Source: Candidatus Doudnabacteria bacterium (lineage in GTDB: Bacteria > Patescibacteriota > Doudnabacteria > UBA920). From it: a stretch of 64,000 nt of DNA. Under the pieces are notes generated by a model. The model worked only from the letters and a program-made list of their open reading frames with translations, searched no databases and was not told the DNA's origin. Positions within the stretch are counted from its first letter, which is position 1. The number at the start of each line of letters is the position of its first letter. The DNA lies in the NCBI GenBank assembly GCA_963837465.1, contig CAWINB010000004.1, forward strand, positions 202,853 through 266,852. Reading direction: 5' to 3'. Shown piece by piece: positions 37 to 52,260 of this stretch. Position numbers and translations under genes: made by a program.

Positions 37-1422
37 TTACCATCCGAAAAGCTTGCCGACCTCTTCGGAAGATTCGCGACGACGAGCGATTTTTATTTCC
101 CCGTTTTGGGCGATAAGCTTGGCCGGAGAAGACAACAGGCAGTGGTGGGAAGCCAGCGCGTCCTGGTAGGCGCCGGTATCCAGCAGCGCTATATAAAGCT
201 CCTCTACCTCATCCAGTCTGGGCAATAAAACACAGTCGCCGCCGGCCGTGTACTTGTCGTCGCTGTCGCAGCTGGAGCCGGCCAGCCAGACCTTGGCCAT
301 TTTTTTTGTATTCATGTGGTTAATGGGAATGACGTGCCATTTTTGGTGGATGGCCCAGGTATCTATTAAATCATTCATGAAACTGCCGTCAATAATATAC
401 CATTTAAAATTTCCTTTGTTGCCGACGTCTTTTTGCGCCAGGATTTTATAAATGGTGATTTGCGCGGGCGCGGCCACATAGCTGCCCCACTCCACGATTA
501 AATTAGGGTGTTTTAACCCGAGCTTATCGCACTCTTTTTTGGCCGTTTTAACAATTTGCTGGACCAGGCTTTTGCCGCTGTAAAAATGCTTCTTTTTTTC
601 AAAGGGCACGCCGGCTCCGCCGCCAATGTCCAGAGTGTCCAGGGCGGGATTTTTTTCCTTCATTTTGGCGTACAAATCCATGGCGCGTTTTATGGGTTTA
701 ATAAAACCCTGAATGCTTTCTATCTGTTTGGAAATGTGGTAATGGAGCGTGGACAGGTTTCTGACTTTGCCGATTTTTATAAGTTCTTCCTCGGTGAAAC
801 CGTAACGGTTGAATTTTTTATCCCAGTGGGCCTGGACTTTAATATCCAGGTTGACGCGGATGCCGACCTCGCCTTTAAATTTTTGCAGCCGTTCCAGTTC
901 GTTGTAATCTTCAATAATTGGGATAACCGTCAGGCCTTTGCCCTTAAGCTCTTCAATCAAGCTGATGTATTTTTCGGTTTTCGGACCGTTGCAGATGACG
1001 CGGATTTTGGTGTTGAATTTGTCCTGTTCTATCATCCTTTTGACCAGAAACAGTTCGTTGGCGGAAGCCACGTCCAAGTTGGCGCCTTCGGCCACGGCAG
1101 GCAGCACGAATTCCTTGGTCTGGTTGGCCTTCATGGCATAATGGTAAAAAAACTTGCCCTTGTAGCCCAAAACTTTTATGTAGGCGTTGAATGTTTCTAT
1201 CAGGTCGCGCACGCGGTTTTCTATAACCGTGGGAAAAACAATTTCCGTGGAAGTTCCGTATTTTTTGACGATGTCAAAAATATTGTACTGGTAGTTGCCT
1301 TCGCGCACAATCAGTTCGCCGTCCGGGCTGATGTCAAACATGGAAGTGTTGTATTCATCTATGCCCAGCCGCCAAAATTTACGGAAACCGTTTTTCTTTT
1401 TAGCCGCGGATTTTGTGGTCAT
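37..1422 (-). CDS. Fold-type III PLP-dependent decarboxylase, short SpeA-like (biosynthetic arginine decarboxylase family)
   Basis: 461 aa ORF. HYAMKANQ resembles the YxxKAN PLP-lysine motif of Orn/DAP/Arg decarboxylases, and a GGGAGVP glycine-rich loop is present. The N-terminal layout (YNIFD...FPTVIENRVRDL...LGYKGKFFYHYAMKANQ...ANLDVASANEL) follows E. coli SpeA. The exact substrate is not certain. Confidence 0.7.
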   Translation of the reverse strand: MTTKSAAKKKNGFRKFWRLGIDEYNTSMFDISPDGELIVREGNYQYNIFDIVKKYGTSTEIVFPTVIENRVRDLIETFNAYIKVLGYKGKFFYHYAMKANQTKEFVLPAVAEGANLDVASANELFLVKRMIEQDKFNTKIRVICNGPKTEKYISLIEELKGKGLTVIPIIEDYNELERLQKFKGEVGIRVNLDIKVQAHWDKKFNRYGFTEEELIKIGKVRNLSTLHYHISKQIESIQGFIKPIKRAMDLYAKMKEKNPALDTLDIGGGAGVPFEKKKHFYSGKSLVQQIVKTAKKECDKLGLKHPNLIVEWGSYVAAPAQITIYKILAQKDVGNKGNFKWYIIDGSFMNDLIDTWAIHQKWHVIPINHMNTKKMAKVWLAGSSCDSDDKYTAGGDCVLLPRLDEVEELYIALLDTGAYQDALASHHCLLSSPAKLIAQNGEIKIARRRESSEEVGKLFGW

Positions 1423-13467: not shown

Positions 13468-13995
13468 TTACCTGACCCCTTCGGGGGTAAGGATGTGCAT
13501 GCCCGGGGCAAAGTCCCCTGTTTGGCTACTCAGGCAAAAATAATAGGCATAGTCGGGATACACCACGGTTGTGCCGTTGGCGCCCAAAAAAGTGGTGCCG
13601 CTTGGGTAATAATAATATTGGCTGCCATTGGTGCCCGGAGGAACCGGCGCCGGATAAGTAATGGATGGGCACACTCCGTCCGGCGGCTGGGGGTCTGAAG
13701 GGAGCGATGATGTGTATATAGGCACCAGCAGGCTGGTAATGGAAGGGTAGCCTTGGTTATCGGAAAAATACAGTTCCAGGCCCGTATTCATTTGGGCCAT
13801 ATCGGCAAGCCGTTTGGCATCCCGGCTTTTTTGTCGGGCCGACGACAAAGCTATTAAAGCTATGGAGGCCAAAAGACCGATAATGGCCACAACCACGAGC
13901 AATTCTATCAAAGTAAAACCCCTGGCGTTTTTATAAACGCCCGGGTTTTCGGGGTGTTGTTTTTCAGGCAAATTAATATTAAAAAAACCAAGCAC
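13468..13995 (-). CDS. Type IV pilin / pseudopilin-like protein (prepilin N-terminal methylation motif)
   Basis: The leader ends in G, followed by FTLIELLVVVAIIGLLASIAL, the class III signal and hydrophobic alpha1 helix. The mature domain is small. Confidence 0.8.
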   Translation of the reverse strand: MLGFFNINLPEKQHPENPGVYKNARGFTLIELLVVVAIIGLLASIALIALSSARQKSRDAKRLADMAQMNTGLELYFSDNQGYPSITSLLVPIYTSSLPSDPQPPDGVCPSITYPAPVPPGTNGSQYYYYPSGTTFLGANGTTVVYPDYAYYFCLSSQTGDFAPGMHILTPEGVR

Positions 13996-14182: not shown

Positions 14183-14258
14183 GGGACGGTAGCTCAGCTG
14201 GTAGAGCAGCGGCCTTTTAAGCCGTTTGTCCCGGGTTCGACCCCCGGCCGTCCCACCA
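14183..14258 (+). tRNA. tRNA-Lys(TTT), copy 1, CCA encoded
   Basis: Cloverleaf with acceptor GGGACGG/CCGTCCC, anticodon stem GCGGC/GCCGT, loop CTTTTAA, T-arm CCGGG-TTCGACC-CCCGG. Confidence 0.9.
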
Positions 14259-15098: not shown

Positions 15099-15443
15099 AT
15101 GGCTGACGAAAAGTGCGTCATTGACATTTTAGATTACAGGCAAGTTCGGATAGTTTTCACCGAGAAGAAATGGATGTTTAAGTGCCAGACCCATCCTGAA
15201 CTAAAAAGCCAAACCTTTTTAAAAAACGTTGAACGGACGTTGCAAGAGCCTGAAGAGGTCTGGGAAGATTACGACGATCCTAAGCATAAATATTGTTATT
15301 ACCGAAAATACTCCACCAATACTATGGTCAAAGTCGTAGTATGGATGGATGGAGATAACCACATTGTTACGGCTTACGAAACTGATTTTATTAAAGAGAC
15401 CAAGTATCAACCGGATTTAAAACAAGTTTATAAAAAATTGTGA
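15099..15443 (+). CDS. Hypothetical protein (first gene of a small pair)
   Basis: 114 aa ORF placed 8 nt before the next ORF. No motif recognised. Confidence 0.35.
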   Translation: MADEKCVIDILDYRQVRIVFTEKKWMFKCQTHPELKSQTFLKNVERTLQEPEEVWEDYDDPKHKYCYYRKYSTNTMVKVVVWMDGDNHIVTAYETDFIKETKYQPDLKQVYKKL

Positions 15444-15450
15444 GGTATTT

Positions 15451-15861
15451 ATGACCGAAGCAATCCAAGAACAAAAGAAGAAAGAAATCTTTGATTTCGT
15501 TTACGGGCTTCCTGCAATGGCAAAAAAGGACGGCTGGGTTCTTCGCTATGATCCGGAAAGCGACGAAGCATCAATCACTGTCCCAGAACTCTCCGACGAC
15601 GCCCGCATCCACTATGTCAACGACGAAATCGCCCTCTATTTTTCCAAAGGTGTTATCCAGGGCTTGTTTATCGAATACTTCCGCAAGAACTTCGTTCAGC
15701 ATCAACCCAATGATCTCACCGCCTTGGCAGAAAAAATAAACACCCCTTCCGAAAATGAGGGTTTTGTTGAGATGTCTTGGAATAAGGTAGAAAAAATCGC
15801 TCCGGATTTGGAAGATTCCATCAAGCGCGCTTTGGTGAAAGACGCAGCACTATCAGTATAA
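15451..15861 (+). CDS. Hypothetical protein (second gene of the pair)
   Basis: 136 aa ORF followed by a terminator hairpin at about 15905..15955 (AAAAAAAAGCCGGGAG...CTCGGCTTTTTTG). Confidence 0.35.
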   Translation: MTEAIQEQKKKEIFDFVYGLPAMAKKDGWVLRYDPESDEASITVPELSDDARIHYVNDEIALYFSKGVIQGLFIEYFRKNFVQHQPNDLTALAEKINTPSENEGFVEMSWNKVEKIAPDLEDSIKRALVKDAALSV

Positions 15862-16198
15862 ATTACTTTGCTAAACCCCTCCGAATTCTGTAACAGGACC
15901 CGGAGGTTCCAAAAAAAAAGCCGGGAGTCCAGTGTTCTGGATATCTCGGCTTTTTTGTTATAATGGAGCTATGGGAACAGTAATTTTAATTATTTTAGCA
16001 TATCTTGTGGTCGGCTTACTCATGGTCTTTTGGGATTTCCGCAGAAACAACTCATTACATGAACCACCGCGTTTTATTCATGACCGTAGCGTAAGCACGG
16101 CAATAATTTTTGTATTAATTTGGCCTTACAAATTACTTGCAAAAATTTAACGATCGAGTTATATTAACTTTAGATTTTCGGCGAAGGCCTACCCTTTA

Positions 16199-18018: not shown

Positions 18019-18243
18019 CTAAAAAGTTTTAAATAGCTCCTCAAGGCTGGTGCCTAAGGCTTTGGCTATTTTTTCTATATTTTTCAAAGCTATATTCCGT
18101 TCCCCTCGTTCGACACCACCAATATATGTGCGATCTAACCCAGACTTATTGGCTAAAGCCATTTGGGAAGTGATCCCTTTTTTCAGGCGTAGCTGATAAA
18201 TGCGCTTACCAAACTTCTTTAAAATGTCATTGTTTTTATTCAC
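18019..18243 (-). CDS. XRE-family helix-turn-helix transcriptional regulator
   Basis: 74 aa ORF with the classic Cro/C1 HTH (LRLKKGITSQMALANKSGLDRTYIGGVERGERNIALKNIEKIAKALG). Confidence 0.8.
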   Translation of the reverse strand: MNKNNDILKKFGKRIYQLRLKKGITSQMALANKSGLDRTYIGGVERGERNIALKNIEKIAKALGTSLEELFKTF

Positions 18244-18363: not shown

Positions 18364-19848
18364 ATGGACAACCAAAATATAGGCATGGAGGGTAATTCTC
18401 CAGCGGTCTACACCCCGACAACTGCCATTCCACCAAGCAACGGCATGCCCGGCGCTAAATTGCCGGGACCCATTGCCATTTTAAGGCAAGCTTGGGAAAT
18501 TTATAAAAGCCGTTTTGGCTTATTGCTTGGTATAACATTGCTTCCCTCCGGATTATTGTTGGTTTATTTTTTGTTAGTTGGAGGAGGCGTAATCGCAGGA
18601 AGTTTTTTAACTCCACAGTTAGGGTCAACAGCTGGCGGTGCGACTGTAATCGCCGGGATAATACTTGCTGTCCTTCTATACATTGCGCTAATTTATGTTG
18701 GTATTTGGGCACAAACTGCTTTAATACTTGCTATAAAGGGTGCGGATCAGAAAGTTGGATTTAAACAATCGTTTGGTCAGGCTTCCCATAAAATCGGTTC
18801 ATTTTTTGGCGCCAGTTTACTTGTAGGAATGGCTGTTAGTGGCATGGCATTACTTTTTGAGGTGCCGGGTTTCCTTTTATTTTATAGTGTTTTGTTAAAA
18901 TTTTTACTGCCGTTTTATCAATACCTACTTTTCATCATTGGCGCCTTGGCTTTTATCTTAATTATTCCGGCTATTATTATTGGCGTTCGGTATTCCCTTT
19001 CTGCGTTTGTGGTTGTCGGAGATAACACCAAAGCCTTGTCTGCCGTTAAACGTAGTCGCGATTATGTAAGCGGCTATTGGTGGCCAGTGTTCTGGCGCTT
19101 TTTGTTCATTGGGGTAATAGCGATAATTTTTACTATAATTATTTTTATTATTACCGCATTTTTAACGACTGCCCTTAAAGGAGTAGCCGGATCAGTAGGG
19201 ACTATAATAGGGTCTATCATCAATCTAGCACTATCAGTCATTCTGCCGCCCTTATACATTACTTACGGCTATGAAGTATACACAAACTTAAAAGCCATCA
19301 AAGGAGAATCTCAGATACCGGCAGACAAATCTAGCGGAGTCGTGTGGATAATTATTGTGGTGGTAATACTAGTTATAGCCATAGCTGGGGTATCGATTGT
19401 TTTGCTCAGTTTAAACTCGGCTCGTTCAAAATCCCGCGATGCCAAAAGGTTGGCTGATGCCAGGCAAATCTCAGCAGCATTAGAACTCTACTTTAATGAT
19501 AACAACGCCTATCCGAATACTTTATCGCAATTAGTTCCTACCGATATAGGCGTATTGCCAGTAGCGCCAGAGCCTGCTGATGGTGCTTGCACCTCTTCTG
19601 AAAATCAATATCAATACCAACAAGTTAGCACTAATGATTATAAATTTACTTTCTGCACCGGTGCTTCGGTAGGCGGATATTCTGCCGGGATGCACACCAT
19701 GACCACTCAAGGTATAGATAGCGGTTCTAATAACTTAGAAAATTTTAACTTTCCAAATTCTATACCACAAAACACTACAGCTCCCGCTAGCCAAAGCAAT
19801 CTCGGCTCAAGCCTCAATAGCATTCAAAATTCCAATGGATCAAGATAA
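18364..19848 (+). CDS. Polytopic membrane protein fused to a C-terminal type IV pilin-like globular domain that lacks a prepilin cleavage site
   Basis: The N-terminal ~330 aa contain about 8 TM helices. The C-terminal ~150 aa (NSARSKSRDAKRLADARQISAALELYFNDNNAYP...GGYSAGMHTMTTQGI) are clearly homologous to the host pilin mature domain at 13468..13995 (SSARQKSRDAKRLADMAQMNTGLELYFSDNQGYP...GDFAPGMHILTPEGV). There is no G|FTLIE motif. Confidence 0.7.
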   Translation: MDNQNIGMEGNSPAVYTPTTAIPPSNGMPGAKLPGPIAILRQAWEIYKSRFGLLLGITLLPSGLLLVYFLLVGGGVIAGSFLTPQLGSTAGGATVIAGIILAVLLYIALIYVGIWAQTALILAIKGADQKVGFKQSFGQASHKIGSFFGASLLVGMAVSGMALLFEVPGFLLFYSVLLKFLLPFYQYLLFIIGALAFILIIPAIIIGVRYSLSAFVVVGDNTKALSAVKRSRDYVSGYWWPVFWRFLFIGVIAIIFTIIIFIITAFLTTALKGVAGSVGTIIGSIINLALSVILPPLYITYGYEVYTNLKAIKGESQIPADKSSGVVWIIIVVVILVIAIAGVSIVLLSLNSARSKSRDAKRLADARQISAALELYFNDNNAYPNTLSQLVPTDIGVLPVAPEPADGACTSSENQYQYQQVSTNDYKFTFCTGASVGGYSAGMHTMTTQGIDSGSNNLENFNFPNSIPQNTTAPASQSNLGSSLNSIQNSNGSR

Positions 19849-20755
19849 CGACCCAATTCCAGTGCCTAAACCTACAAGCTCGGATCCCGCCATTCAGGAG
19901 CTTGGAGAAATTACCGACGTTAATGCTGACGTTGATAAATATATCACCCAAAAATACCGTAACCAAATGATAGTTGGCGGATTAATTCTCTTAGCAGCTG
20001 AAGTCCTCTGGTTTATTTATATTTTTGCCAGCAATAATGTTTCTCAAGGCACTTTGGAAGTGGCCTTAATTCCGGTCTTCTTTGCCGTCGCTCTTTTCTC
20101 ACTCGTCAAAAATAAAATCCAAGACGCATTTTTCCAGCAGTTTGCAGCAAGCAACGGATTTACCTTCCAAAAAATCGGCTTGCCGGACAATTTGGATGGT
20201 TCGTTATTTTCCATCGGCCACAGCGCAGGGGGAAGAGATTTAGTTACCGGCAACTTCCAAAATTTGCCGTTGACCCTCTTTAGTTACCACTATACTATAG
20301 GTTACGGAAAAGGCGCACGGACTTATTTTTACACTATTTTCAGACTGGATTACCCCACCCCGTTGCCGCCGATTTTTTTACAAGTAAAAGGCCACGATTT
20401 CGGTGAAGGCATCTTTGATCACTTTTCCAAAAATGACCCGGAAAAAATCCAATTAGAAGGAGACTTTAATCAATACTTTACTCTTTATACCAAGAAAAGT
20501 TTTGAAACAGAGGCATTGCAGGTTTTATCCCCAGACTTTATGGTAAAAATTCAGGATGAGTGGAAAAATTTCAGCTTGGAATTTGTGGGAAGCCATTTGT
20601 ATATTTATACTTACCACGTTGTAGGCACCAAAGCCGAGCTAGACAGCATGTATCAGCTAGCCCAATACCTTATAACAAGAATAGAACCTATGGCGGCTAG
20701 AATGAAGACAACCCTAACTACTTTAGAAGGTTACTACAATGGAGAAAAACAATAA
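19835..20755 (+). CDS. Membrane-anchored hypothetical protein
   Basis: 306 aa ORF with two N-terminal TM helices, overlapping the previous gene by 14 nt. Confidence 0.4.
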   Translation: MDQDNDPIPVPKPTSSDPAIQELGEITDVNADVDKYITQKYRNQMIVGGLILLAAEVLWFIYIFASNNVSQGTLEVALIPVFFAVALFSLVKNKIQDAFFQQFAASNGFTFQKIGLPDNLDGSLFSIGHSAGGRDLVTGNFQNLPLTLFSYHYTIGYGKGARTYFYTIFRLDYPTPLPPIFLQVKGHDFGEGIFDHFSKNDPEKIQLEGDFNQYFTLYTKKSFETEALQVLSPDFMVKIQDEWKNFSLEFVGSHLYIYTYHVVGTKAELDSMYQLAQYLITRIEPMAARMKTTLTTLEGYYNGEKQ

Positions 20756-20848: not shown

Positions 20849-23206
20849 ATGAAAAAAATACTTTCGACATTCGTTGCTATAGGGATGTTGACTTTTGTGC
20901 TGCTTCCAGCAGCGCAAGTTTGGGCTGCTGCGACAGTCACTTTGGCTGCCACAGCTCTACCTCATGCAAAGGTTAACCAACCCTATTCTGCCAGCGTTGC
21001 CTTTACCAACTCCGGTAATGGCAGCACCACCTATGCTCTTAACGGCACGTGGACGGGTTTGCCCAATGGCATTATTGGACAAGGTTTAGCTTCTAATCCT
21101 GATCAGGTTATGGGAATGTTGGGCAGTTCAGGAAATTTTACATTATCGGGAACCCCGACCCAAGCAGGGACTTACAACGTTAGCTTAAGCGTTAACGATC
21201 AATACGGCGGCTCTGCCAGCCAGAGTTTTGTATTATATGTAGACGGACCATCAGCTATTCAAATTAATGGGACATCAATTCCGGCCGGACTAGTTGGCAC
21301 ACCTTATAGCGCTTCCATCCCTTACACTTATAACGGCACTTACGCACTTAACGCTACTTGGACTGGATTGCCGCCGGGAATAATTGGTCAAGGATTAGCC
21401 TCCGATCCCAACCATGTTTATGGCTTGCTAGGAAACTCGGTTACTGTTCTTTTGCAAGGAACCCCAACTACAGCGGGCGTATACAGCGCGCACCTTTCGA
21501 TGACCGACCAATACGGCGCTACTGCCGATCAGTATTTTAACATCATCGTCAGCACGCCAAACTCTCTTAATATCACAGCAACTTCGTTAGCCAGTGGCAC
21601 AGTAGGTCAATCTTATTCAGCTACTATTCCTTACACCTATTCAGGCTCGCCTTGTTTGAATGCTACTTGGACAGGTTTACCGTCCGGCATCATCGGCCAA
21701 GGTTTGGCTTCTAACCCCAACTCTGTTCTCGGAGTATGCGGACAAGGAAATGAAAATCTAACTTTATCAGGAACACCCACTCAAGCCGGCACATTTACTG
21801 TTACGCTACAAATGACCGATCAGGGCGCGCTCAATGTCACTAAAACATTTGCTCTTTCCGTTAGCTCATCCGCGAACAGCACCGCGAATCAAAATTTTCA
21901 AGTTACAACCACTTCTCTACCGCCGGGGACAGTAGGCACCACTTATGCAAGCGGAATATATTACACTTACACAGGCCAAGATGCTTTAAACGCTACGTTT
22001 ACCAGTCTGCCACCCGGTTTATATACTGGCACGTGCGGGTCAAGTTGTTTAACCAATACTGGTATGACCCCGGCGAGCAATGGCGGCACTGGAACTGTAT
22101 ATATCAGTGGCACCCCTACTCAGGCAGGAAATTATAGCGTTTCTCTTTACATCAACGATCCAACATACGTAGGCTCTGCTTCTTCAGGAATCAGCAAACA
22201 GTTTACTATTCAGATAAACCCTACTGGTGTCAGTAATAATATGACCCCCACGGCTCCACTTTTTTCTGGACCGAGCACAGTCCAAGCGGGCACTTCCGCA
22301 TCTTATACTTTTAGTTCTTGGGATCAAGATAATGACGGCTATAATGGCGGTTCGTTAAGTTATTCAGTAAACTGGGGCGACAACTCTCCAATAAGCAACC
22401 AAAGTGGTTTTGCTTCCGGAGCCGGCTTTACTACATCTCATACATGGACAAATGCCGGCAATTACCAAATCACAGTTACTGTCACGCCGGGTTTGGGTAA
22501 TACAGTGCAAGGCAGTTATCCGGTGCAGGTGACTTCAACTGTTGTAACCCCAACTCCTACGCCGACTCCCACTCCCACACCATCTACTGGCAGCAGTATT
22601 AATTTACCCGACGGCACTGTCATAAAACTGCCTAATAGCCCGACTGTCTATTTGGTTTCCGGCGGTCAGCTTACACCGTTTACCTCGGCTCAAGACTTCT
22701 TAAGCAAAGGTTATACTTGGTCACAAGTCCAACAGGTTAGCCCCAGCCAAGTTTCTACTCCTACTACAAATACAAATTCTGGAAGTAATTCTGGATTAAG
22801 CACTTCCAGCTTCTATCCCTATCCTTCAGGTAGTTTGGTGAACGATGGGGGCACAGTTTACTTTATTGGCAGTGGTCATACCAAAGTCGCATTTACCAGC
22901 TCTCAGGCTTTTGTGGGATTAGGTTATTCATTCGGGAATGTCATTCAAGGTGACTTAACCAACTACCCCTTATCCAGCAGTTATGCTCTCTCTTCGTCAA
23001 ATATAGCTCACCCATGGGGAAGCTGGTTAATTAACAAAGGAACAGTTTACTATTCCTCTCAAAGCGGTTTAATAGGCGTTCCAAATTCTCAAATTTTCAC
23101 TGCCAATGGTGGAAATTGGAATTTACTAGTTAAAGCTAATTCCTACGATATGAGCGCCTCAATTCTTTCTGCTATGACGTTAAATGATACAAGAGTAATC
23201 CAGTAG
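20849..23206 (+). CDS. Large secreted cell-surface protein with tandem He_PIG-like (putative Ig) repeats, a (TP)n linker and a C-terminal domain
   Basis: Signal peptide present. At least four ~100-aa repeats follow the pattern NATWTGLPPGIIGQGLASNPN...LSGTPTQAGT..V.L.M.DQ, which resembles the 'LPxGL...G.ISGTPT..AGTY' signature of the PF05345 putative Ig domain. A PTPTPTPTPTP linker is also present. Terminator hairpins follow at 23221..23305. Confidence 0.6.
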   Translation: MKKILSTFVAIGMLTFVLLPAAQVWAAATVTLAATALPHAKVNQPYSASVAFTNSGNGSTTYALNGTWTGLPNGIIGQGLASNPDQVMGMLGSSGNFTLSGTPTQAGTYNVSLSVNDQYGGSASQSFVLYVDGPSAIQINGTSIPAGLVGTPYSASIPYTYNGTYALNATWTGLPPGIIGQGLASDPNHVYGLLGNSVTVLLQGTPTTAGVYSAHLSMTDQYGATADQYFNIIVSTPNSLNITATSLASGTVGQSYSATIPYTYSGSPCLNATWTGLPSGIIGQGLASNPNSVLGVCGQGNENLTLSGTPTQAGTFTVTLQMTDQGALNVTKTFALSVSSSANSTANQNFQVTTTSLPPGTVGTTYASGIYYTYTGQDALNATFTSLPPGLYTGTCGSSCLTNTGMTPASNGGTGTVYISGTPTQAGNYSVSLYINDPTYVGSASSGISKQFTIQINPTGVSNNMTPTAPLFSGPSTVQAGTSASYTFSSWDQDNDGYNGGSLSYSVNWGDNSPISNQSGFASGAGFTTSHTWTNAGNYQITVTVTPGLGNTVQGSYPVQVTSTVVTPTPTPTPTPTPSTGSSINLPDGTVIKLPNSPTVYLVSGGQLTPFTSAQDFLSKGYTWSQVQQVSPSQVSTPTTNTNSGSNSGLSTSSFYPYPSGSLVNDGGTVYFIGSGHTKVAFTSSQAFVGLGYSFGNVIQGDLTNYPLSSSYALSSSNIAHPWGSWLINKGTVYYSSQSGLIGVPNSQIFTANGGNWNLLVKANSYDMSASILSAMTLNDTRVIQ

Positions 23207-23289: not shown

Positions 23290-24033
23290 TCATTGCGGCC
23301 GCTTGTAGATAGTCGGAGAACGAGGAGTTTTACCGCCAGCTTTCAGATAGTTTAGGAATTCAGCGCACCCTCTCTTGTAATCGCATCTCTGGAGGATATC
23401 GTCGGCTTCTAAAAAATCTGTATCAAGTGGCTGGCCGATGGCGCGAAGTTGCTTGACTGCAAGCTGGTCGACTTTTATCCATACCCTTTCTTCTTCCAGG
23501 AGCTGCTGTTCATCGGTCGCGTTGCCTTTGGTGTAGTAGGATTTGTCGCGCTCGAAGTGTGTAGCCTCATGCACCAGTCCCAAAGCAAAATTATTTTTAC
23601 TTAACTGGTTGAAGCCAACCGGCACTTTCTGTTGAACGCGCACGATCATAAGTAGCCGTGGCGTATAAATGAAAATGCAGGGCGTGTAGGGTGGTTTGTC
23701 ATCGCTGTTCTTAGACACGTAGGCAGAGCTCATCATCGTAGCCTTGTTTTCCAGCCCGGCCTTGATTTTGTAGTATTGCCCGATGGCTTCGATCTTGAGG
23801 CGACCAGCAGAATACTCATCCCAAATCCATTGAATTTTTTCTTTCATGAATGGTGTCATGTAGGAGTTCGCCGGATCGGATGCCCCCGTCGCCGTTAATA
23901 GGTCATTGACTAACTGCTTGGCTTCGTCTGCCGAAAACTGGAAAGTCTGCTCTGTAGGCTGTATTGGGGTTATAACCGTTGGTTCCTTTCTGGACTGTTT
24001 CGTTGGAAACAGAGCAAAAATTACCACGACCAT
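23290..24033 (-). CDS. Membrane-anchored putative zinc metallopeptidase (HExxH)
   Basis: The N-terminal TM segment is followed by a conserved VHEATHFE (HExxH) motif. The region is moderately GC-rich. Confidence 0.45.
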   Translation of the reverse strand: MVVVIFALFPTKQSRKEPTVITPIQPTEQTFQFSADEAKQLVNDLLTATGASDPANSYMTPFMKEKIQWIWDEYSAGRLKIEAIGQYYKIKAGLENKATMMSSAYVSKNSDDKPPYTPCIFIYTPRLLMIVRVQQKVPVGFNQLSKNNFALGLVHEATHFERDKSYYTKGNATDEQQLLEEERVWIKVDQLAVKQLRAIGQPLDTDFLEADDILQRCDYKRGCAEFLNYLKAGGKTPRSPTIYKRPQ

Positions 24034-24562: not shown

Positions 24563-25723
24563 ATGAGCCAAATTCAAATAGACAGTTTACGAAAAACCCC
24601 ATCAAGGTCTTTCGTTGCAGAAACTTTTGGAAGGATATTTTCTATGTCCAAGCCTACAAAAACTTTCAGCGAGGCCGGCCAAGAGTTTCTCTATTGGTGC
24701 CAGTATGGCAGATCAGAAGCCGTTGCAAAAACCACGCTCAAAACCTATACCAGAACATTGGAACTTATTGCCAAGCATTTTGGAGATGTCCCGGTTAGTG
24801 AGGTTACGCTGGAGCATGTCCTGAATTTGAAAAAGGATTTTTTGGATCGGGGTGCCAAGCCTGGCTATTTGAATAAGGTGGTAATGCTAGTTCGGTCGGT
24901 TATAAAACACGCAGCAGAAAAAATGCATTTACCAGTTATGTCTTGGCGCGAGATTGAGCTGCCAAGAAAGCCCCGGCCGGAAGTCAGGTATTTGAGTCAG
25001 AGCGAGCTTGACCGGGCAATGTCTTTCATTCATACCGACACACTGCAAGGTATCCGCTTTAAAGCCGTCTTTACAGCCATGCTGGACACGGGCATGCGTA
25101 TTTCCGAGGTTTTGTCGCTAAACAGGGATTCTATTGAATGGGGAGATAAGTCAGCATATATTATTGGTAAGGGCAGTAAAAAACGAAAAGTCTTGTTTCA
25201 GGACTGGTCATTGTGGTGGATCCAACAATATTTATCTAACCGCAAAGACAAACATGAGGCCATGTTCGTTTCTCACCAGAGCGGATATCCCATAGCGCGG
25301 CTACAGACCAATGATGTGCAGCGGGTATTCCGGAGAATTGCCCTCAAGGCAGGTTTGGAAAAATTCACACCACACACGGCCAGAAAAACAGCGGGATCAA
25401 CCATGTGGAATAATGGGGCAGATATTCAGGACGTGCAGGTATTTTTAGGTCATGAAAAGTTGCAAACTACTCAAATTTACGTCGGTAAAAATTATGACCG
25501 TGTCCGGGAGGTGCAAAGCCGAACCTTACAGTATCGGGCTGTGGACGTGGGTGTTACAGCAGTCATCAGGTGGGCAAAGGGCTACGACAAATGCAGCAAT
25601 TGCGGCAAAACGGACAAGCCTCATGGCGCAAAAGGTTATTGCATTAATTGCTACATGAATTTGAAGAACGCGCGAATACGGGCAGAACAGGCACAAACCG
25701 TCGAGAAACCGGTGCCAATTTAG
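24563..25723 (+). CDS. Tyrosine site-specific integrase (phage integrase family) with a C-terminal Cys4 zinc ribbon
   Basis: An N-terminal SAM-like core-binding region is followed by a catalytic domain with R...HTARKTAGSTMWNNGADIQDVQVFLGHEKLQTTQIY, matching the integrase H-x-x-R...Y signature. The C-terminus has CSNCGK...CINCY. The start may be the internal Met at about 24644. Confidence 0.85.
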   Translation: MSQIQIDSLRKTPSRSFVAETFGRIFSMSKPTKTFSEAGQEFLYWCQYGRSEAVAKTTLKTYTRTLELIAKHFGDVPVSEVTLEHVLNLKKDFLDRGAKPGYLNKVVMLVRSVIKHAAEKMHLPVMSWREIELPRKPRPEVRYLSQSELDRAMSFIHTDTLQGIRFKAVFTAMLDTGMRISEVLSLNRDSIEWGDKSAYIIGKGSKKRKVLFQDWSLWWIQQYLSNRKDKHEAMFVSHQSGYPIARLQTNDVQRVFRRIALKAGLEKFTPHTARKTAGSTMWNNGADIQDVQVFLGHEKLQTTQIYVGKNYDRVREVQSRTLQYRAVDVGVTAVIRWAKGYDKCSNCGKTDKPHGAKGYCINCYMNLKNARIRAEQAQTVEKPVPI

Positions 25724-26148: not shown

Positions 26149-26224
26149 GGGTCGGTAGCTCAGCTGGTAGAGCAGCGGCCTTTTAAGCCGTTTGTCGAGG
26201 GTTCGACCCCCTCCCGACCCACCA
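26149..26224 (+). tRNA. tRNA-Lys(TTT), copy 2 (different acceptor and T stems from copy 1)
   Basis: Cloverleaf with acceptor GGGTCGG/CCGACCC and T-arm GAGGG-TTCGACC-CCCTC. Positions 8-47 are identical to copy 1. Confidence 0.9.
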
Positions 26225-27665
26225 TATTGAACTTCTTGGAATCTGCAACGAGTTTAAACTCATTTTTCCAATTGGGGATTAGTGTTTCTCCATTCCAAGA
26301 AAAGTTTTCCAACATAGACTTCACCAAACGCCTTTTCCCTTCGGGAGAGGCTTTTTGGTAAGAGAAATAAGGATTTCTTAAAAGTTTTCCAAGTAGCACC
26401 ATTTGGTCTAAAATCTTTTCATCCGCAGTATCCAAAGCAACCCGCCTTTGCCTAAGCACTAATGATTGGTTAACAAACCTGGCCTTTAGCGAATTGTAAG
26501 TGTCTTCCTCAATTTTACCCTCAATTAGCCTCATTGCCAAGGCCTCAGTTTGTTGCCTTATTCTGACCTCGTCCATCTGAATTTTCTTTAGTTCGTCATC
26601 CTTGCAAAAGTTCATATCAGTCCGAAAACTCTTGACGGCTTCAATATATTTCTGCCCCTCTTGCTCGCTGAACTGGATTTCTTTTAACCGTTTTAAAAAC
26701 TGTTTTTCAATGACGGCTTCCCCAATATTTTTAAAGCCGCAGTTTTTATTTCGGCAATTGTAATATTTATATTTTTTCTTTGCCGAAACACAGCGTAGTT
26801 TACCTTTGCACAAAGGGCAGAATACTAAATTTTGAAAAACATAAATAAAAGTTTTGCTATGCTTGTAGCCTCTGCCACTTAAAACTACCTGCACTTGATC
26901 GTAAAGGTCTTTGGTGACAATGGGGGTATGCTTGCCCTCAATCGGTTCCTTGCGATAGCGAAAGAAGCCGTAGTAAAACGGATTGCGTAATATGTGAGCC
27001 AGTTTATTTTTACTTAACTTACAGCCTTTTTTAGTAAGTAAGCCCATTTCAGTTAAAATATCGGTTAACTGCACTAGCGAATAATTGCCTGTAGCGTACA
27101 TTTCAAAAGCTCTTTTTATAAACGGTGCTTTCACTGGATCTGGTTCTTTAAAAGCTTTCTTGCCCATGTTGACATAGCCTATCGGAGCAGGTAATGGAGT
27201 CATCCCTAAATTTAATAATCCGCTTATGCCTTTGTTGACTTCCTGCTTTAGGTTGGCAACGTAAGACTTGGCAAAACCAAATTGGATAAATAATATGCCC
27301 TTGTTGGGAGTTGAACTGGAAATTCCGTCAGCTACAAAATGCAGATCAAAACCAGCGTTCATCATATCTTCTAAAATTATCATATCCTGAAAATTCCTGG
27401 AGGCTCGGTCAACTTTATTAAAAATAATGCCTTTAACTTTATAATGTTTAGCTAATGCTATCATTTCGTGAAATTCATGGCGATCAATTTTTGAAGCACT
27501 TTCAATCTCCCTGAAAACTTTGAAAATTGGCAGTGGCGGATGATGATGTTCCGCATAAAATTGGTTTTGCCGTGTTTGTTCGTCTAAAGACGCTCCATCC
27601 GATTGCATTTGGCTGGAGACCCTGACATAGGAAATATAGGAATTTTGGTAGTCAATTGCTTTCAT
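26160..27665 (-). CDS. Large serine recombinase (resolvase catalytic domain, recombinase domain, zinc ribbon and coiled coil)
   Basis: Catalytic domain YISYVRVSSQMQ...KVDRASRN with the Ser nucleophile. The recombinase domain and zinc ribbon CPLCKGKLRCV...YYNCRNKNCGF follow, then a coiled coil. The last ~16 codons are encoded antisense to tRNA-Lys copy 2. Confidence 0.85.
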   Translation of the reverse strand: MKAIDYQNSYISYVRVSSQMQSDGASLDEQTRQNQFYAEHHHPPLPIFKVFREIESASKIDRHEFHEMIALAKHYKVKGIIFNKVDRASRNFQDMIILEDMMNAGFDLHFVADGISSSTPNKGILFIQFGFAKSYVANLKQEVNKGISGLLNLGMTPLPAPIGYVNMGKKAFKEPDPVKAPFIKRAFEMYATGNYSLVQLTDILTEMGLLTKKGCKLSKNKLAHILRNPFYYGFFRYRKEPIEGKHTPIVTKDLYDQVQVVLSGRGYKHSKTFIYVFQNLVFCPLCKGKLRCVSAKKKYKYYNCRNKNCGFKNIGEAVIEKQFLKRLKEIQFSEQEGQKYIEAVKSFRTDMNFCKDDELKKIQMDEVRIRQQTEALAMRLIEGKIEEDTYNSLKARFVNQSLVLRQRRVALDTADEKILDQMVLLGKLLRNPYFSYQKASPEGKRRLVKSMLENFSWNGETLIPNWKNEFKLVADSKKFNMVGREGVEPSTNGLKGRCSTS

Positions 27666-34375: not shown

Positions 34376-35314
34376 ATGCCTACTAAATTTAAACCAGGGG
34401 AGATAATTGATAAAGTATATATGGTTGAAGAAGCCTTTACAGGAGGTTCATTTGGGCATGCTTATAAAATAAAAAATGGTACAGGCTATGAAGTTATAAA
34501 AATCTGTGCAGAACCTGCTGGTACAACCGAAGCACTAAGATTTGTGCAAGAAAATGATTTTTTGTACAAACTATTTCCAAACCCCGCTATTATTGAGCCA
34601 CTAAGTAAAATCAGCCCATTAAATCCCGACAGTATTTATTATAGGATGAAGTTTGCTGATTATAATCTAGAAACTTATCTAGACGATTTTGAATCAAGCC
34701 TTGACCTAAATAGTAAATTGTCTATATTCAAAGGAATATGCGAGGGCTTAAAGCATGCACATGCAAATAAAATTTTGCATAGAGATTTGCATTGGGGGAA
34801 TATTTTAATTGACATGCTAAATAACATGCCAGTCCCTAAACTGACCGATTTTGGAAGATCTAAAGATCTAAAAGCTTTAATAGCATTATCATCAAATCCT
34901 GGAATTTGGGGAGAATTTGTTTGTCCACCAGAAATAAGGTTTAGGATTTGGGATAAACTTCCGACAAATTATATGGAGGGTGATATATACTCTTTGGGGA
35001 TTATATTTTATTATATATTAGGGGCTATGCCGAACTTCCCATTTATATTTCAAAATGAAATTATAAATTTTTTAAGAAATAAAAAGGTGACTCTTAAGAC
35101 AGTTAATGATGAAAGTATCCGTCATGGTTTGTATAAAGAATGGCTAGGAACCCTCACAGACCAAAAGATTAATAGTCATCTCAGCATTTTAATAAATGGA
35201 AGTGCGGTAATAAATGACAAAATTAATACCATTTTAAAAAAACTTAGCCATCCTAATTATGAGTTGCGGTATCGTTCGGTAGAGGATGTGTTAAAAGAAA
35301 TAGCAACACTATAA
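34376..35314 (+). CDS. Ser/Thr protein kinase-like protein
   Basis: Glycine loop GGSFGHAY, a VIKI lysine, catalytic loop HRDLHWGNILI and DFG motif LTDFGRS. Confidence 0.7.
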   Translation: MPTKFKPGEIIDKVYMVEEAFTGGSFGHAYKIKNGTGYEVIKICAEPAGTTEALRFVQENDFLYKLFPNPAIIEPLSKISPLNPDSIYYRMKFADYNLETYLDDFESSLDLNSKLSIFKGICEGLKHAHANKILHRDLHWGNILIDMLNNMPVPKLTDFGRSKDLKALIALSSNPGIWGEFVCPPEIRFRIWDKLPTNYMEGDIYSLGIIFYYILGAMPNFPFIFQNEIINFLRNKKVTLKTVNDESIRHGLYKEWLGTLTDQKINSHLSILINGSAVINDKINTILKKLSHPNYELRYRSVEDVLKEIATL

Positions 35315-37086
35315 TGGAAGACTTATTAATAATTCGTAATGCCACCAAAGCACAGCCAGCAGAAATTATTGCTGACCCTAATTTGGATTTGCCAGATTTT
35401 TATTTAGACCAAAAAAATCCGGAAAAAAATAAGTATTATGAAAAAGAAAAGTCCGAAGACTATTCCTTTTTAAGTAAAAATTTAAATAAAGAATTCCTAA
35501 AAAATCAATACAAAATAGCAAAATCAAATTTTGCAAGAAAAAAAAGCACCAGGAATGCTTACGCATTAGGTGAAATATTTTTATTAAAAAAAATCTTTTC
35601 CACTGCTAAAAATTATTACAAAATTAGCATAGAACTTGATAAGTCTTTTCTGCCTGCTTATGAAAAATTAGTATTGGTGTCCATAATTCTAAACGAAACA
35701 GATAGGGCAAATTACTATTATAAATTGCTTTTAGAAGTTTCCAATCATAGACCAGATCTAGTTCATAGTTACGCGCTTTTTAGAGTTGCAAGCTCTGCTG
35801 GAGATAAAACGACTTTGGATGAGACGCTCAAAGACTTAGATCAAATTTTAGCTCTGCAACCATTGGATATTGCCGCAATAAATAGTTATGGATTTATTTT
35901 ACTAAATTTTTACCAAAAACTTGATGAGGCACAACAGTATTTTGAGAAGGCTTTAGAAATAGATTCTACCTTTGTTCACTCAATGAATAATTTAGCGGTT
36001 TGTTATATTCATAAAAATGACTTAACAAAGGCTATATCACTACTTGAAAAAGCAATAAAAATCCATCCAAACTATGTGATGGCATATCAAAATTTAGCTG
36101 GCATATATTTTAGAACAAATAAATTAGCAGAAGTGTCCAAGATACTTAAGCAAGCAGTAAAAAATAATATTACCTTATCTGACGAAACCAAACATCTGTC
36201 TGGTTGGCTTTTAATTCTTACTCATAAATATGAGGAGGCAAAAAATTGGTACCTGAAAGAAATAATGGGAGAGCCAGGAAATAATCTTTTATATAACAAT
36301 TTAGGGTACGCATACCAACAACTCAAAGATTTAAACAAAGCAGAAGAATACTATAAACAGGCTGTTGATATAGCGAAAAGAAGAAAGGCAAAAAATTTAT
36401 TTGTTGATGACAGATCTCTTTTTGCCTTTTATAATCTTGGCCGACTTTTTCAATTTTTTGGTAAAGTTGACGAACTCCATAAAATTTCAAATGATATTCT
36501 TAATTGGAAGCCCGAAGATCCTTTTGGCCAATATTTGTATGGGAGCGCTTTAGTCATAGATGGTAAGCATGATGCCGCTAAAAAACAATTATTAAAGGTA
36601 GTTGAAAAATATCCGAAACTTCCAGAAACCTATCAAGACCTTTCTTACATATATGACTCTATAGATAAAGATTATAAAGCTTCTATTGATTTGTTGAATG
36701 ATGCCATAAAAATTGGAATTAACTTACCTATAATTTATAATAACTTGGCAATAGCCTATATAAATTTAGGAGACTTTAAAAATGCAGAGGACACGCTTAA
36801 TAAAATAACGGATGATTGTGAGCCTACAATAATTGCAACCCGGGGACTTTTAGCTTTTAGAAAAAATGATTCGGAGAAAGGTAATAAATATTACAAAAAA
36901 GCTGTCGATGAAATTAAACCGCAATTAAAAAATTTGGCGAATCAAATTTGGTTATATGAGCAAGCATTTTATTTCTTTCGTACTGGAAAGTTAGAAGAAG
37001 CAAAGATAAAACTCAAAGAATCAAAGAAAATGGGTAAATCATATATGACTAAGGATATAACCGAATTAGAAAATAAACTGACCTAA
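35314..37086 (+). CDS. TPR-repeat protein
   Basis: 590 aa ORF with multiple 34-aa TPR-like repeats (A..YY..AL..DP....A.NNLG..Y). Its start overlaps the kinase stop (ATAATGG). Confidence 0.7.
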   Translation: MEDLLIIRNATKAQPAEIIADPNLDLPDFYLDQKNPEKNKYYEKEKSEDYSFLSKNLNKEFLKNQYKIAKSNFARKKSTRNAYALGEIFLLKKIFSTAKNYYKISIELDKSFLPAYEKLVLVSIILNETDRANYYYKLLLEVSNHRPDLVHSYALFRVASSAGDKTTLDETLKDLDQILALQPLDIAAINSYGFILLNFYQKLDEAQQYFEKALEIDSTFVHSMNNLAVCYIHKNDLTKAISLLEKAIKIHPNYVMAYQNLAGIYFRTNKLAEVSKILKQAVKNNITLSDETKHLSGWLLILTHKYEEAKNWYLKEIMGEPGNNLLYNNLGYAYQQLKDLNKAEEYYKQAVDIAKRRKAKNLFVDDRSLFAFYNLGRLFQFFGKVDELHKISNDILNWKPEDPFGQYLYGSALVIDGKHDAAKKQLLKVVEKYPKLPETYQDLSYIYDSIDKDYKASIDLLNDAIKIGINLPIIYNNLAIAYINLGDFKNAEDTLNKITDDCEPTIIATRGLLAFRKNDSEKGNKYYKKAVDEIKPQLKNLANQIWLYEQAFYFFRTGKLEEAKIKLKESKKMGKSYMTKDITELENKLT

Positions 37087-39983: not shown

Positions 39984-40012
39984 GCTGAGTTCGATCCCCG
40001 GCCGTCCCACCA
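39984..40012 (+). repeat. Partial tRNA-Lys 3' end (att-site remnant or direct repeat of tRNA-Lys copy 1)
   Basis: GCTGAGTTCGATCCCCGGCCGTCCCACCA. The 3' 24 nt match copy 1 with one mismatch. The 5' GCTGAGTTCGA part matches the attP-like core at 26073. Confidence 0.7.
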
Positions 40013-44641: not shown

Positions 44642-44702
44642 GATTTTACTAAGTTTTTTAGCGCGGACAGAGTTCCCCTAAAAAAAGCAACAATCCAAAC
44701 AA

Positions 44703-44776
44703 GCGGCCATGGTTCAATGGTAGAACTCCTCCTTGCCAAGGAGGGGATAGGGGTTCGATTCCCCTTGGCCGCTCCA
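44703..44776 (+). tRNA. tRNA-Gly(GCC), CCA encoded
   Basis: Cloverleaf with acceptor GCGGCCA/TGGCCGC, anticodon stem CTCCT/AGGAG, loop TGCCAAG, T-arm AGGGG-TTCGATT-CCCCT. Confidence 0.85.
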
Positions 44777-44930
44777 GTAGCAAACTTTCAGACATTTCAG
44801 ATTTTTTTGCACGGGCTTCGCAGAGCGAAGCCCATTGTGTCGGGGGGACGGAAACGATTTTTTGATTTTTTAAAACAAGGTGCGAGCCGAAGATTTTTTG
44901 TGCAGACGATTTTTTGGGGGGTAAGTCGGG
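44772..44930 (+). repeat. Perfect ~160-bp inverted repeat, copy A (partner 50672..50828)
   Basis: Copy A, from CTCCAGTAGCAAACTTTCAGACATTTCAG to GACGATTTTTTGGGG, is the exact reverse complement of copy B. It starts at the CTCCA 3' end of tRNA-Gly and encodes the penultimate ~50 aa of the LSR. Confidence 0.85.
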
Positions 44931-46329
44931 CGAAAGCGTTATTTCGCCGAGTTTTTCTGCGTCTTGTATCCACTCTTTGAGAGGTGCGAGCCAGATTGTC
45001 CGTTGTTGTTCAAGACGGGCTATTTGCTCCTCCAGCGACTTCTTATCGGACACAAGAACGTTCTTTTGTGTCCGATAGGTTTCCTGCTCAATGTCTTGGT
45101 CTAAATAGGCGTTAAGAAGTCGCTGGAGCTTGCGGTCAATCTCATCTGTCCTTGAACGCAAGTCTTGGACAACCACGGCCACGGAGCGGGCGGAGTCCTT
45201 GTCGTCCTTGTCCGCCATAGCGTTTAGCTGTTCCGCCCACTCTGGTGGCATTACAAAGGTTTTAAGGATAGTTGTAAGCTGGTTGTCCAGTTCCGTGTCC
45301 CTGACGGACAACTGCGAGCAATGGGTGTTTTTCTTAGTGCAACGATAGTATAGGTAATTATGGACATTGCCGTTTTTTTGGTGCTTGGTCTTGGTTTCGG
45401 CGGTTATGCTGCGGCCGCACTCGCCGCACTTGAGCAAACCACAAAACGGCTGGGGCTGGTTCTTGGGATTGTCGCGCTGGTGGCCGCGTTTTTCTAAAAC
45501 CTCCTGTACTTTATCCCAAAGCTGCTTGGTAATGATTGGCTCGTGTCGCCCTTGGTGCAACTCACCTGCGTATTGGAAAAATCCGTAATAAAAAGGGTCG
45601 TTTAAAATATATGTTATCCTGTCCCGTTTTAGGATTTTTCCGCTCTTGGCTACTATGCCCTTATCTTTTAAAAACAAAGAAATGGCCTCAAGGGTATTAC
45701 TACCTTGAGCGTATAGTTCAAACATCTGTTTAATGATTTTGGACTTCCTTTTGTCTATGACAATAGTTTTAGTCCGGCTGTCGTTAAGATAGCCGATAGG
45801 CGCACGGCTGGGATACTCGCCGCGCCGGACTTTTCTCTAAGCCCCCGTTTAGTGTTGTTGCTTAGGTCTAAAATAAACTGGTTAGCCATTCCAAACTCAA
45901 CGCTCATAAGCAGAACGTTATCAGTCGAGCGATAGCTCCGCTCATTGGTTTGGATATGCTGGATTATGCCGCGCTGTAAAAACCAGCTAATCTGCCCGCC
46001 GTCCACGGGGTTGCGGGCGAGCCTGTCCAGTTTCCAGCAGACAAGGCCTTGAGCTTCGCCTTTTTCAATCCGGCTCATCATCTCGGAAAACACCGGACGG
46101 CCTAAAGATTTAGCCGACTGTTTTTCCACAAACTCGCAAGCAATAGATAAGTCCTGCTCTTTTGCCAAAGCCCGCAACTCCGTGAGCTGGGCTTCTATGG
46201 ATAAAACCTGTTTATCCTCAACATCGGTGGACTTGCGGGCGTAGAGAAAATAGTTATCGTTTACCAAAATTGATTTTTTTGCTATCATATAATTGTAGTA
46301 AATTGTTATATATTGATACTAGCAAATAG

Positions 46330-46545: not shown

Positions 46546-46549
46546 ACTT

Positions 46550-48277: not shown

Positions 48278-48279
48278 TT

Positions 48280-50664: not shown

Positions 50665-50671
50665 TTTATTG

Positions 50672-52257: not shown

Positions 52258-52260
52258 AAT

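Follow-up and report, generated by a model that had tools for sequence, protein, structure and literature searches.

A predicted pilin fold held by a six-helix membrane domain, encoded on integrated DNA next to tRNA-Lys in Candidatus Doudnabacteria

We analyzed a 64,000-nucleotide stretch of a Candidatus Doudnabacteria genome (contig CAWINB010000004.1, positions 202,853 to 266,852; hereafter the window) and, within it, a gene whose 494-amino-acid product joins a membrane domain of several transmembrane (TM) helices to a predicted type IV pilin head; we call this gene and its protein the fusion. A preliminary description, made from the sequence alone, had placed the gene on an island at a tRNA-Lys gene and had taken its C-terminus for a copy of the host pilin that might interfere with the pilus. 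The location stands: the fusion lies in integrated DNA (14259-40012) with a tyrosine integrase, and the host pilin gene, said to be about 200 bp from tRNA-Lys(UUU) (14183-14258), is 188 bp from it. The features on which our argument rests are the following.

18364..19848, + strand: fusion gene, 494 amino acids (six-TM membrane domain, linker, pilin-derived TM7, pilin head and disordered tail)
18517..19299, + strand: membrane domain, residues ~52-312, six TM helices
19300..19407, + strand: basic cytoplasmic linker KGESQIPADKSS and TM7 (residues 325-348)
19408..19728, + strand: pilin α1-C and four-stranded head (residues 349-455), with invariant Cys409 and Cys431
19729..19845, + strand: S/N-rich disordered tail (residues 456-494, ~40 residues), predicted local distance difference test score (pLDDT) about 30
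13468..13995, - strand: host prepilin, 175 amino acids, canonical G↓FTLIE (the arrow marks the cleavage site), outside the island

The open reading frame of the fusion is continuous from 18364 to 19848, and homologues share its architecture and an N-terminal MENxxI start. The number of Lys and Arg residues is 4 in the N-terminus and 0, 4, 1, 5, 1 and 3 in loops 1-2, 2-3, 3-4, 4-5, 5-6 and 6-7, an alternating pattern that is also the mean over eight fusions. Because the loop charge alternates in this way, the protein is predicted to have six TM helices, a cytoplasmic linker, a seventh TM helix and an extracytoplasmic C-terminal domain; this N-in, C-out topology would be the orientation of an unassembled prepilin. 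The N-terminal part, previously counted as about eight TM helices, is thus reduced by the loop charges and the structural model to six plus one that is pilin-derived. One could suspect that adjacent membrane-protein and pilin genes had been joined by an assembly or frameshift error. The modular appearance is all that speaks for such an artefact, while the frame is continuous, the same fusion recurs in about 100 clusters at most 50% identical from many samples, and across these clusters the linker is conserved and the prepilin leader absent; we give the idea practically no credence.

In the full-length AlphaFold2 model of the fusion (mean pLDDT 65.5), for which eight full-length homologues were used, a helical membrane domain leads to one unbroken helix at residues 325-380 and then to β-strands at 417-447. 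A separate model of the C-terminal domain (pLDDT 92.2) gives the pilin lollipop with a helix at 324-380. The pilin traits present are a continuous α1 helix of ~50 residues with a hydrophobic N-terminal half and, in the head, an antiparallel β-sheet packed on α1-C together with a predicted C-terminal disulfide. In a Foldseek comparison of the full-length model with the PDB, nothing significant was found (best E 0.39). With the fusion profile, pilins were the sole PDB matches (Geobacter PilA-N, GspG and PilE1), aligned from their residue ~7, and NCBIfam GspG matched the α1 helix weakly at profile positions 6-63. In the BLASTP alignment to the host prepilin, TM7 is likewise colinear with α1-N, without F1 and E5. 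From the starting points of the PDB and GspG matches, TM7 appears to be a pilin α1-N minus its first five or six residues, F1 and E5 included. Beyond the weak GspG match on the α1 helix, searches of the fusion against Pfam (E<=0.1), NCBIfam, PHROGs and PADLOC gave no family-level match.

At the stretch equivalent to the prepilin cleavage site, the fusion reads SSG-VVWIII (local sequence ADKSSGVVWIIIVVV), with neither F1 nor E5, and PF07963 and TIGR02532 have no match on it; both match the host pilin. The cleavage site had been described as replaced, and so it is. The G-1 residue is required for prepilin cleavage, and the free methylated N-terminus and E5 serve subunit docking. Since the class III signal (G-1, F1, E5), a free N-terminus and E5 are missing, neither processing by prepilin peptidase nor entry into a filament would be expected, and the fusion is probably neither processed nor polymerized, staying in the membrane as a tethered pilin fold. 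The characterization of the protein as a non-processable, membrane-anchored pilin look-alike therefore agrees with the modeled fold, which appears to be that of a true pilin, and with the lost signal. By sequence, the protein should not be annotated as a pilin: it has the pilin fold, but it fails the test for the cleavage/methylation motif.

The same holds across the family. Among 69 fusions anchored on the (K/R)D.(K/R)R motif for a survey of the cleavage site, a GFxxxE-like motif is present in none, and the TM helix of 60 lacks acidic residues. It could be argued that prepilin peptidase nevertheless cuts after the Gly in ...KSSG↓VVW..., freeing from its 6-TM carrier a pilin-like subunit that has no E5: cleavage is determined mainly by G-1, and a Gly stands at, or one residue before, the equivalent of G-1 in the window protein and several homologues. 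The position of this Gly is not conserved, however (KKSSLL in P0006, SGPVW in P0007, and many homologues without Gly), F1 or E5 occurs in no homologue, and no known class III signal lies, as this site would, inside the protein at ~324 residues from the N-terminus. Such cryptic processing seems to us very improbable.

We then consider the relation to the host pilin. The host prepilin matches PF07963 N_methyl (E 1e-9) and TIGR02532 (E 9.7e-9) and has the motif ...NARG↓FTLIELL. Fusion residues ~315-451 align with it at E 8e-31 and 37% identity (61/165 identical, 29 gap positions; BLASTP, composition-adjusted). The matched blocks are the TM helix, SAR(S/Q)KSRDAKRLAD, LELYF.DN..YP, PxPxDGxC and FC..S..G..A.GMH, and two invariant cysteines lie within the match. 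A six-frame motif scan of the window found SRDAKR only in the reading frames of the fusion and the host prepilin, and GFTLIE only in the latter (13903-13920). The reported homology is thus real and is not confined to a low-complexity segment, a doubt raised at the time, yet "closely homologous" overstates an identity of 37% by BLASTP or 45% by MAFFT. Likewise, a pilin part is present in the C-terminal ~150 residues, limited to residues ~325-455, the last ~40 being the disordered tail.

The identity of the head with pilins of other genomes bears on its origin. With residues 322-460 as query, 156 proteins matched at E<=1e-5, nearly all of 116-180 amino acids with PF07963 and 40-61% identical; names among them include [quoted passage not shown]. 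In the 116-row alignment A4, the fusion head is 45% identical to the host pilin over MAFFT columns, the lowest value but one, and 41-58% identical to 115 foreign pilins, all but one at 48% or more. In a head-only alignment, heads from other fusions (P0005 64%, P0003 62%) and from foreign prepilins (up to 62%) come nearest to it. Because foreign pilins are closer, the head is not a recent copy of the host pilin, although it had been taken for a copy; the two are, from these alignments, members of one very large pilin family found in Patescibacteria (also called the Candidate Phyla Radiation, CPR).

Within the membrane domain, the two large cytoplasmic loops are the most strongly conserved. The conserved cytoplasmic motifs in the alignment of homologues are KGA(D/E)Q..GF, SHK..S.FGA and GD....A..A.RS.(D)YV.G(Y/H)WW, and they are also present in head-less paralogues. 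Because conservation peaks in these loops, the domain is apparently more than an inert anchor. It probably belongs, loosely, to the group of YciC/UPF0259 (PF06790), GPDPase_memb (PF10110) and DUF7847 (PF25231), none of which is described with a pilin domain. With its six TM helices and alternating loop charge, it has the form of this group, a polytopic helical domain of ~300 residues. A precomputed PF25231 match of the fusion is on record, though hmmscan gave none at E<=0.1; homologue P0003 reaches 39.6 bits for PF10110 (cut-off 29.6), P0008 and P0011 score below this cut-off, and UPF0259 is recorded on distant fusions. From the model, a CysZ/CTL-like fold is possible. To our knowledge, CysZ, a sulfate permease, is the only one among YciC/UPF0259, GPDPase_memb, DUF7847 and CysZ/CTL with a known function. 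The transport role of CTL is disputed (PMC13160678).

A search among 1.84 billion representatives (clustering at 50% identity) with a profile built from eight fusions gave 20,933 matches at E<=1e-3, 4,734 at 1e-10 and 496 at 1e-30. Local hidden Markov models for the membrane domain and for the head sorted 173 retrieved proteins into 103 with both, 20 with the membrane domain alone, 38 with two or three heads but neither membrane domain nor N_methyl motif, 6 with one head in other contexts (e.g., with a Zn-ribbon and RDD, P0024) and 6 true prepilins. Judging from these sequences, the fusion architecture is old and widespread. It is a combination of known domains that is itself undescribed: in the literature searched, we found no description of this architecture or of pilin-like domain fusions in Patescibacteria. 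In the more distant fusions, a Zn-ribbon stands at the N-terminus and there is a score on UPF0259/YciC. In all fusions examined, a full-length α1-N-like helix colinear with real pilins is kept.

What follows the membrane domain varies. P0002-4 have the pilin head plus He_PIG, and in the head-less paralogue P0011 a He_PIG Ig-like domain takes the position of the head; the proteins P0009 and P0012 finish there with short low-complexity tails. P0011 is probably from the same genome as the window fusion, since both are recorded with a longest contig of 868,218 bp. In close homologues the position of the disordered tail is occupied by a He_PIG Ig-like or other domain, and the He_PIG tail of P0002 matches each N-terminal repeat of the 785-amino-acid protein encoded near the window fusion (E 1e-9). 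Of additional note, the 38 multi-head proteins represent a second undescribed architecture (P0017-P0023, P0042-P0055 and others): ~650-850 amino acids with one N-terminal TM helix and two or three tandem heads, each beginning at SRDAKR, without a hydrophobic α1-N and without the N_methyl motif.

The genomic settings of the homologues differ as well. Scans of contigs with back-translated patterns, which reach only close relatives, gave 4 loci on genome contigs and 3 short distant ones on metagenome contigs. The closest homologues (P0003, 57% identity) are at the element-like loci L002-L004 and L008. The window shares with L002-L004 and L008 a module of five genes, namely a 72-amino-acid TM protein (46% identity), the fusion, a He_PIG protein (34%), an HExxH protein (68%) and an XRE regulator (41%). 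At L002/L008 this module comes with a serine recombinase, the 3' end of which overlaps tRNA-Asp, and also with HicA and ParB/methyltransferase genes. Since the window part has a tyrosine integrase and L002/L008 a serine recombinase, the cargo module seems to travel with different recombinases.

Other homologues have chromosomal surroundings. L005 (P0008) has groES/EL, nusB and HU to one side and, opposite them, DUF2090 and glycosyltransferases; L012 (P0006) adjoins pheT, a UvrD-type helicase, rmuC and hsp20; and at L014, a locus of a close relative, P0032 lies between PRPP synthase/RNHCP and an Orn/Arg decarboxylase 88% identical to that at window 37..1422. Incidentally, at L014 the decarboxylase and PRPP-synthase/RNHCP blocks are ~4 kb apart with P0032 between them; in the window ~40 kb separate them, and their relative orientation is inverted. 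L019 and L020 keep the order fusion, Peptidase_M23, CAP in two genomes. At L005, L012, L014 and L019/L020, no recombinase was found and the fusions lie among housekeeping genes. The head-less relative P0012 (L010) has the same tRNA-Gly and tRNA-Pro neighbors as P0008 at L005.

L009 is from a relative of the window genome (ABC ATPase 81%, HlyD 57% and pilin 63% identical), and there the fusion and a He_PIG protein adjoin the same landmark (tRNA-Lys, pilin, 469-amino-acid protein, MazE-like, HlyD). The pilin next to tRNA-Lys is the orthologue of the host prepilin, at 63%. The L009 pair is flanked by hrcA-grpE-dnaK-dnaJ, clpP and nusA. We found neither a recombinase nor a second tRNA-Lys fragment in its 21.5 kb, and the locus may be a decayed island; at L001/L011 (P0005), no recombinase lies within 10 kb. 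L001 and L009, classed as ambiguous in the context survey, are probably chromosomal.

Taking this together, most fusion contexts examined have no recombinase and housekeeping surroundings, so far as sequence tells the family is not element-specific, and homologues are by no means always element-borne (chromosomal at L005, L012, L014 and L019/L020, probably also at L001 and L009). Conservation of the fusion outside islands, which the preliminary description had set against its own proposal, is largely what we see, the copies in the window and at L002-4/L008 being element-borne.

These contexts bear directly on the proposal that the fusion is an element-encoded decoy, which poisons pilus assembly or masks a pilus receptor and so brings about superinfection exclusion or a block of DNA uptake. 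The protein is a non-extractable pilin look-alike, its gene is on recombinase-bearing integrated DNA in the window genome and in the closest homologues (L002-4, L008), and mobile elements are known to target type IV pili (T4P), including by a pilin homologue, prophage P-FimU (PMC12952977). Against a decoy, all but one of the 115 foreign pilins in alignment A4 are closer to the head than the host pilin (37-45%) is. At least 5 independent contexts show this architecture in the chromosome, and in paralogues the head is replaceable. Phage structural genes are absent. In scans of IMG/VR with the fusion profile, the 247-amino-acid neighbor and the pilin-head profile, no relative was confirmed, and neither PHROGs families nor PADLOC models include a described inhibitor or defense protein homologous to the fusion. 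Zip, PfsE and a D3112-derived peptide are reportedly further mobile-element factors that act on T4P, as small proteins of the cytoplasm or inner membrane that inhibit PilB, PilZ or PilC. With nothing specific to support it, pilus interference or superinfection exclusion is reduced to a minority possibility, a special case for which only the location on an island, seen in two lineages, speaks, and we regard it as improbable.

P-FimU minor-pilin homologues resemble the fusion as pilin look-alikes on integrated foreign DNA, but P-FimU keeps the prepilin signal, enters the pilus and is phage-specific (PMC12952977), whereas the fusion would be non-processable and its family is mostly chromosomal. 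The known pilin-type defense requires a processable pilin that enters the pilus.

We propose instead that the role of the fusion is independent of the pilus: it would be an island-borne extra paralogue of a patescibacterial family in which the pilin head serves as an exchangeable extracellular binding or docking module. We would put the probability of this reading at roughly one half. By sequence and model, the conserved 6-TM domain, probably of the YciC/UPF0259, GPDPase_memb and DUF7847 group, leads into a basic cytoplasmic linker, after which comes a whole short type IV pilin, consisting of the α1-N TM helix, α1-C and a four-stranded head with a likely disulfide, from which the class III signal has been lost. 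In this topology the head sits on the outer face of the cytoplasmic membrane, held covalently by the 6-TM domain. The C-terminal extracellular part appears exchangeable (pilin head, head plus He_PIG, He_PIG alone or a short tail), and because it is, the pilin fold may act close to the membrane as a small domain for binding or docking. Its partner would likely be the co-encoded secreted He_PIG/PKD protein or other envelope components, and not the pilus fiber as a subunit. We favor a pilus-independent role because He_PIG replaces or extends the head, because the head is absent in a relative with the same neighbors and because it occurs free-standing in tandem. The head is promiscuous, as the 38 proteins with two or three heads but no N_methyl and the RDD fusion illustrate. 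The window copy would be cargo, together with the Ig-like protein, the HExxH protein, a small TM protein and the XRE regulator, of a ~12-kb integrase-bearing segment at a tRNA-Lys hot spot, a related module being carried by what appears to be a serine-recombinase element of another genome.

Several observations weigh against this proposal. The CysZ/CTL resemblance comes from a medium-confidence model (pLDDT 65.5, 8-sequence alignment). The He_PIG neighbor is limited to the closer subfamily, and distant fusions are followed by Peptidase_M23 and CAP. Held at ~100 residues from the membrane, the head may fail to extend past the wall or S-layer, and for this reason direct adhesion to other cells is disfavored. 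The distant fusion at L019 is 7 kb from pilM/pilB. Finally, the α1-N-like helix retained in all examined fusions could point to continued interaction with pilins or the pilus platform, beyond anchoring.

The last two points lead to the reading of the fusion as a pilus-associated fixed subunit: a locked pilin would engage the pilin pool or the platform (PilC/M/N/O) via α1-N/α1-C and act as a regulator, as a basal anchor or stop, or in a stator-like manner. TM7 is colinear with α1-N from residue ~6-7 and is kept throughout the fusions examined, the head is 50-61% identical to bona fide prepilins, T4P are central and enriched in CPR (PMC6744442), pilM..pilB lie 7 kb from one distant fusion (L019), and there is a precedent of repurposed filament-subunit paralogues in ArlF/ArlG (PMC4425475, PMC8667602). 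On the other hand, the docking features, E5 and the free methylated N-terminus, are missing, the head is swapped for an Ig domain or absent in paralogues and at similar loci, and most contexts lack pilus genes. We consider a pilus-associated subunit, the main rival of our reading, unlikely, although by no means far-fetched. A broader version, in which such "locked pilins" are a large and so far unrecognized Patescibacteria class acting on T4P as anchors, stop subunits or regulators, with mobile elements carrying versions that reprogram or block the host pilus, with which these episymbionts attach to hosts and take up DNA, is speculative and in our view doubtful.

A comparison of the pilus-independent module that we favor with known systems is informative. 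The closest likeness is to the short CPR type IV pilins (PF07963 plus a GspG/T2SSG-like head), to which the CPR-enriched family fam000005 belongs as a described pilin family (PMC6744442). Fusion residues 325-455 are colinear with pilins of 116-145 amino acids at 50-61% identity, and both have the hydrophobic α1-N, LNSARxKSRDAKR, LELY.ND..YP, PxPxDGxC, the FCLG cysteine and a predicted lollipop fold. Unlike these pilins, the fusion has no leader and no G↓F1...E5, and ~320 residues with six TM helices precede the pilin part; for this reason it would be no filament subunit as it stands. ArlF/ArlG (FlaF/FlaG) are similar in being duplicates of a filament subunit that have lost the polymerizing role and are anchored in the membrane, facing outward (PMC4425475, PMC8667602). 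They are monotopic, are encoded in a dedicated operon and have a β-sandwich archaellin domain, whereas the fusion has a conserved 6-TM anchor and its genes lie outside pilus operons; we saw no sequence relationship between the two. The Pam pilus of CPR (10.64898/2026.03.03.709456) was also considered, and its Ig-like donor-strand pilins are unrelated to the fusion.

T4P are the best-documented tool of CPR/Patescibacteria for host attachment, movement and DNA uptake (PMC6744442, PMC11623550). The widespread family analyzed here would keep a complete pilin fold anchored in the membrane but without the signals for cleavage and polymerization. If it contacts the pilus machinery, it would add a new layer of control or anchoring to a central CPR organelle. 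If it does not, the pilin head has been reused as a general extracellular module, also in tandem in large proteins and fused to RDD/Zn-ribbon membrane proteins. In either case the family is relevant to the annotation of the many "pilin-like" genes in CPR genomes. The notion of an island-built mimic of the host pilin is mostly refuted, and the modestly interesting result that remains is a family of CPR proteins predicted, from sequence and models, to be membrane-locked and pilin-folded.

The further features of the island are listed below; parts A and B are its two segments.

14183..14258, + strand: tRNA-Lys(UUU), copy 1, left border of the integrated DNA
15099..15443, + strand: PBECR2/DUF4258 toxin-like gene, part A
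15451..15861, + strand: 136-amino-acid gene without family match, 8 nt after the toxin-like gene, part A
15932..16150, + strand: 72-amino-acid membrane protein, 46% identical to the L002/L008 element gene, shared cargo module
18019..18243, - strand: XRE-type helix-turn-helix gene, divergent from the fusion
19835..20755, + strand: 306-amino-acid two-TM protein, weak DUF3137 match (E 3.3e-4, below cut-off)
20849..23206, + strand: 785-amino-acid secreted protein with He_PIG/PKD Ig-like repeats
23290..24033, - strand: 247-amino-acid protein with N-terminal TM helix and HEATH (HExxH) motif, 68% identical to its L002/L008 counterpart
24563..25723, + strand: tyrosine integrase, PF00589 (E 2.8e-39), right end of part A
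26149..26224, + strand: tRNA-Lys(UUU), copy 2, 92% identical to copy 1, border of parts A and B
39987..40012, + strand: tRNA-Lys 3' fragment GAGTTCGATCCCCGGCCGTCCCACCA, 26 nt, none expected by chance, right border of the integrated DNA

Rightward from tRNA-Lys copy 1, the order is small open reading frames, PBECR2/DUF4258, an HNH endonuclease, a secreted 262-amino-acid protein and XRE, and from XRE on, the fusion, the DUF3137-like gene, He_PIG/PKD, the 247-amino-acid HExxH protein and the tyrosine integrase. Part B contains two serine recombinases, a primase Zn-finger, a kinase/TPR pair and DNA of 30-38% GC. Directly past the tRNA-Lys fragment, housekeeping pyr genes (dihydroorotate dehydrogenase and orotidine monophosphate decarboxylase) begin at 40179. 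Because the stretch is bounded by tRNA-Lys and the 26-nt fragment, with the pyr genes right after it, 14259-40012 is about 25.7 kb of tandemly integrated DNA, with the fusion in the first, integrase-bearing ~12-kb part. The two full tRNA-Lys copies are non-identical, each with compensated stems. They were also considered as hybrids of a host 5' half and an element 3' half, which is ruled out since acceptor and T stems are compensated in both. In the 3' fragment, the acceptor end matches copy 1, and the flank downstream of it resembles that of copy 2.

The 120-bp spacer between the XRE gene and the fusion contains the boxes TGGTATAAT and TGTATAAT. The start of the 306-amino-acid gene overlaps the stop of the fusion by 14 nt, suggesting one operon; in L002/L008 and L009, this gene is absent between the fusion and the Ig gene. 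The He_PIG protein is a recurrent neighbor of the fusion (window, L002/L008, L009). Among the cargo genes that the window and L002/L008 have in common, the one for the 247-amino-acid HExxH protein is the most conserved; the protein has no match in Pfam, NCBIfam, PHROGs or PADLOC. The toxin-like gene and the 136-amino-acid gene possibly form a toxin-immunity pair. In part B, which is low in GC, the Ser/Thr kinase at 34376..35314(+) and the TPR protein at 35314..37086(+) match the PADLOC candidate defense pair PDC-M71A (E 1.4e-13) and PDC-M71B (E 5e-21).

The window holds a third mobile stretch (44658-58424), adjoining tRNA-Gly, with a split serine recombinase, a Replic_Relax protein, a reverse transcriptase and a Mutator-family transposase, and also with a type III restriction-modification pair (N6_N4 methylase and ResIII helicase). 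This is a high load of mobile DNA for a genome with an 868-kb contig. Large serine-recombinase genes end inside opposite-strand tRNA genes at window 26160..27665(-) with tRNA-Lys 26149-26224(+), at window 44658..45725(-) with tRNA-Gly 44703-44776(+) and at L002 16543-18114(+) with tRNA-Asp 18057-18133(-). Because three such genes end inside tRNA genes, these overlaps suggest a CPR family of integrative elements whose attachment site lies in the 3' end of the recombinase gene and the tRNA.

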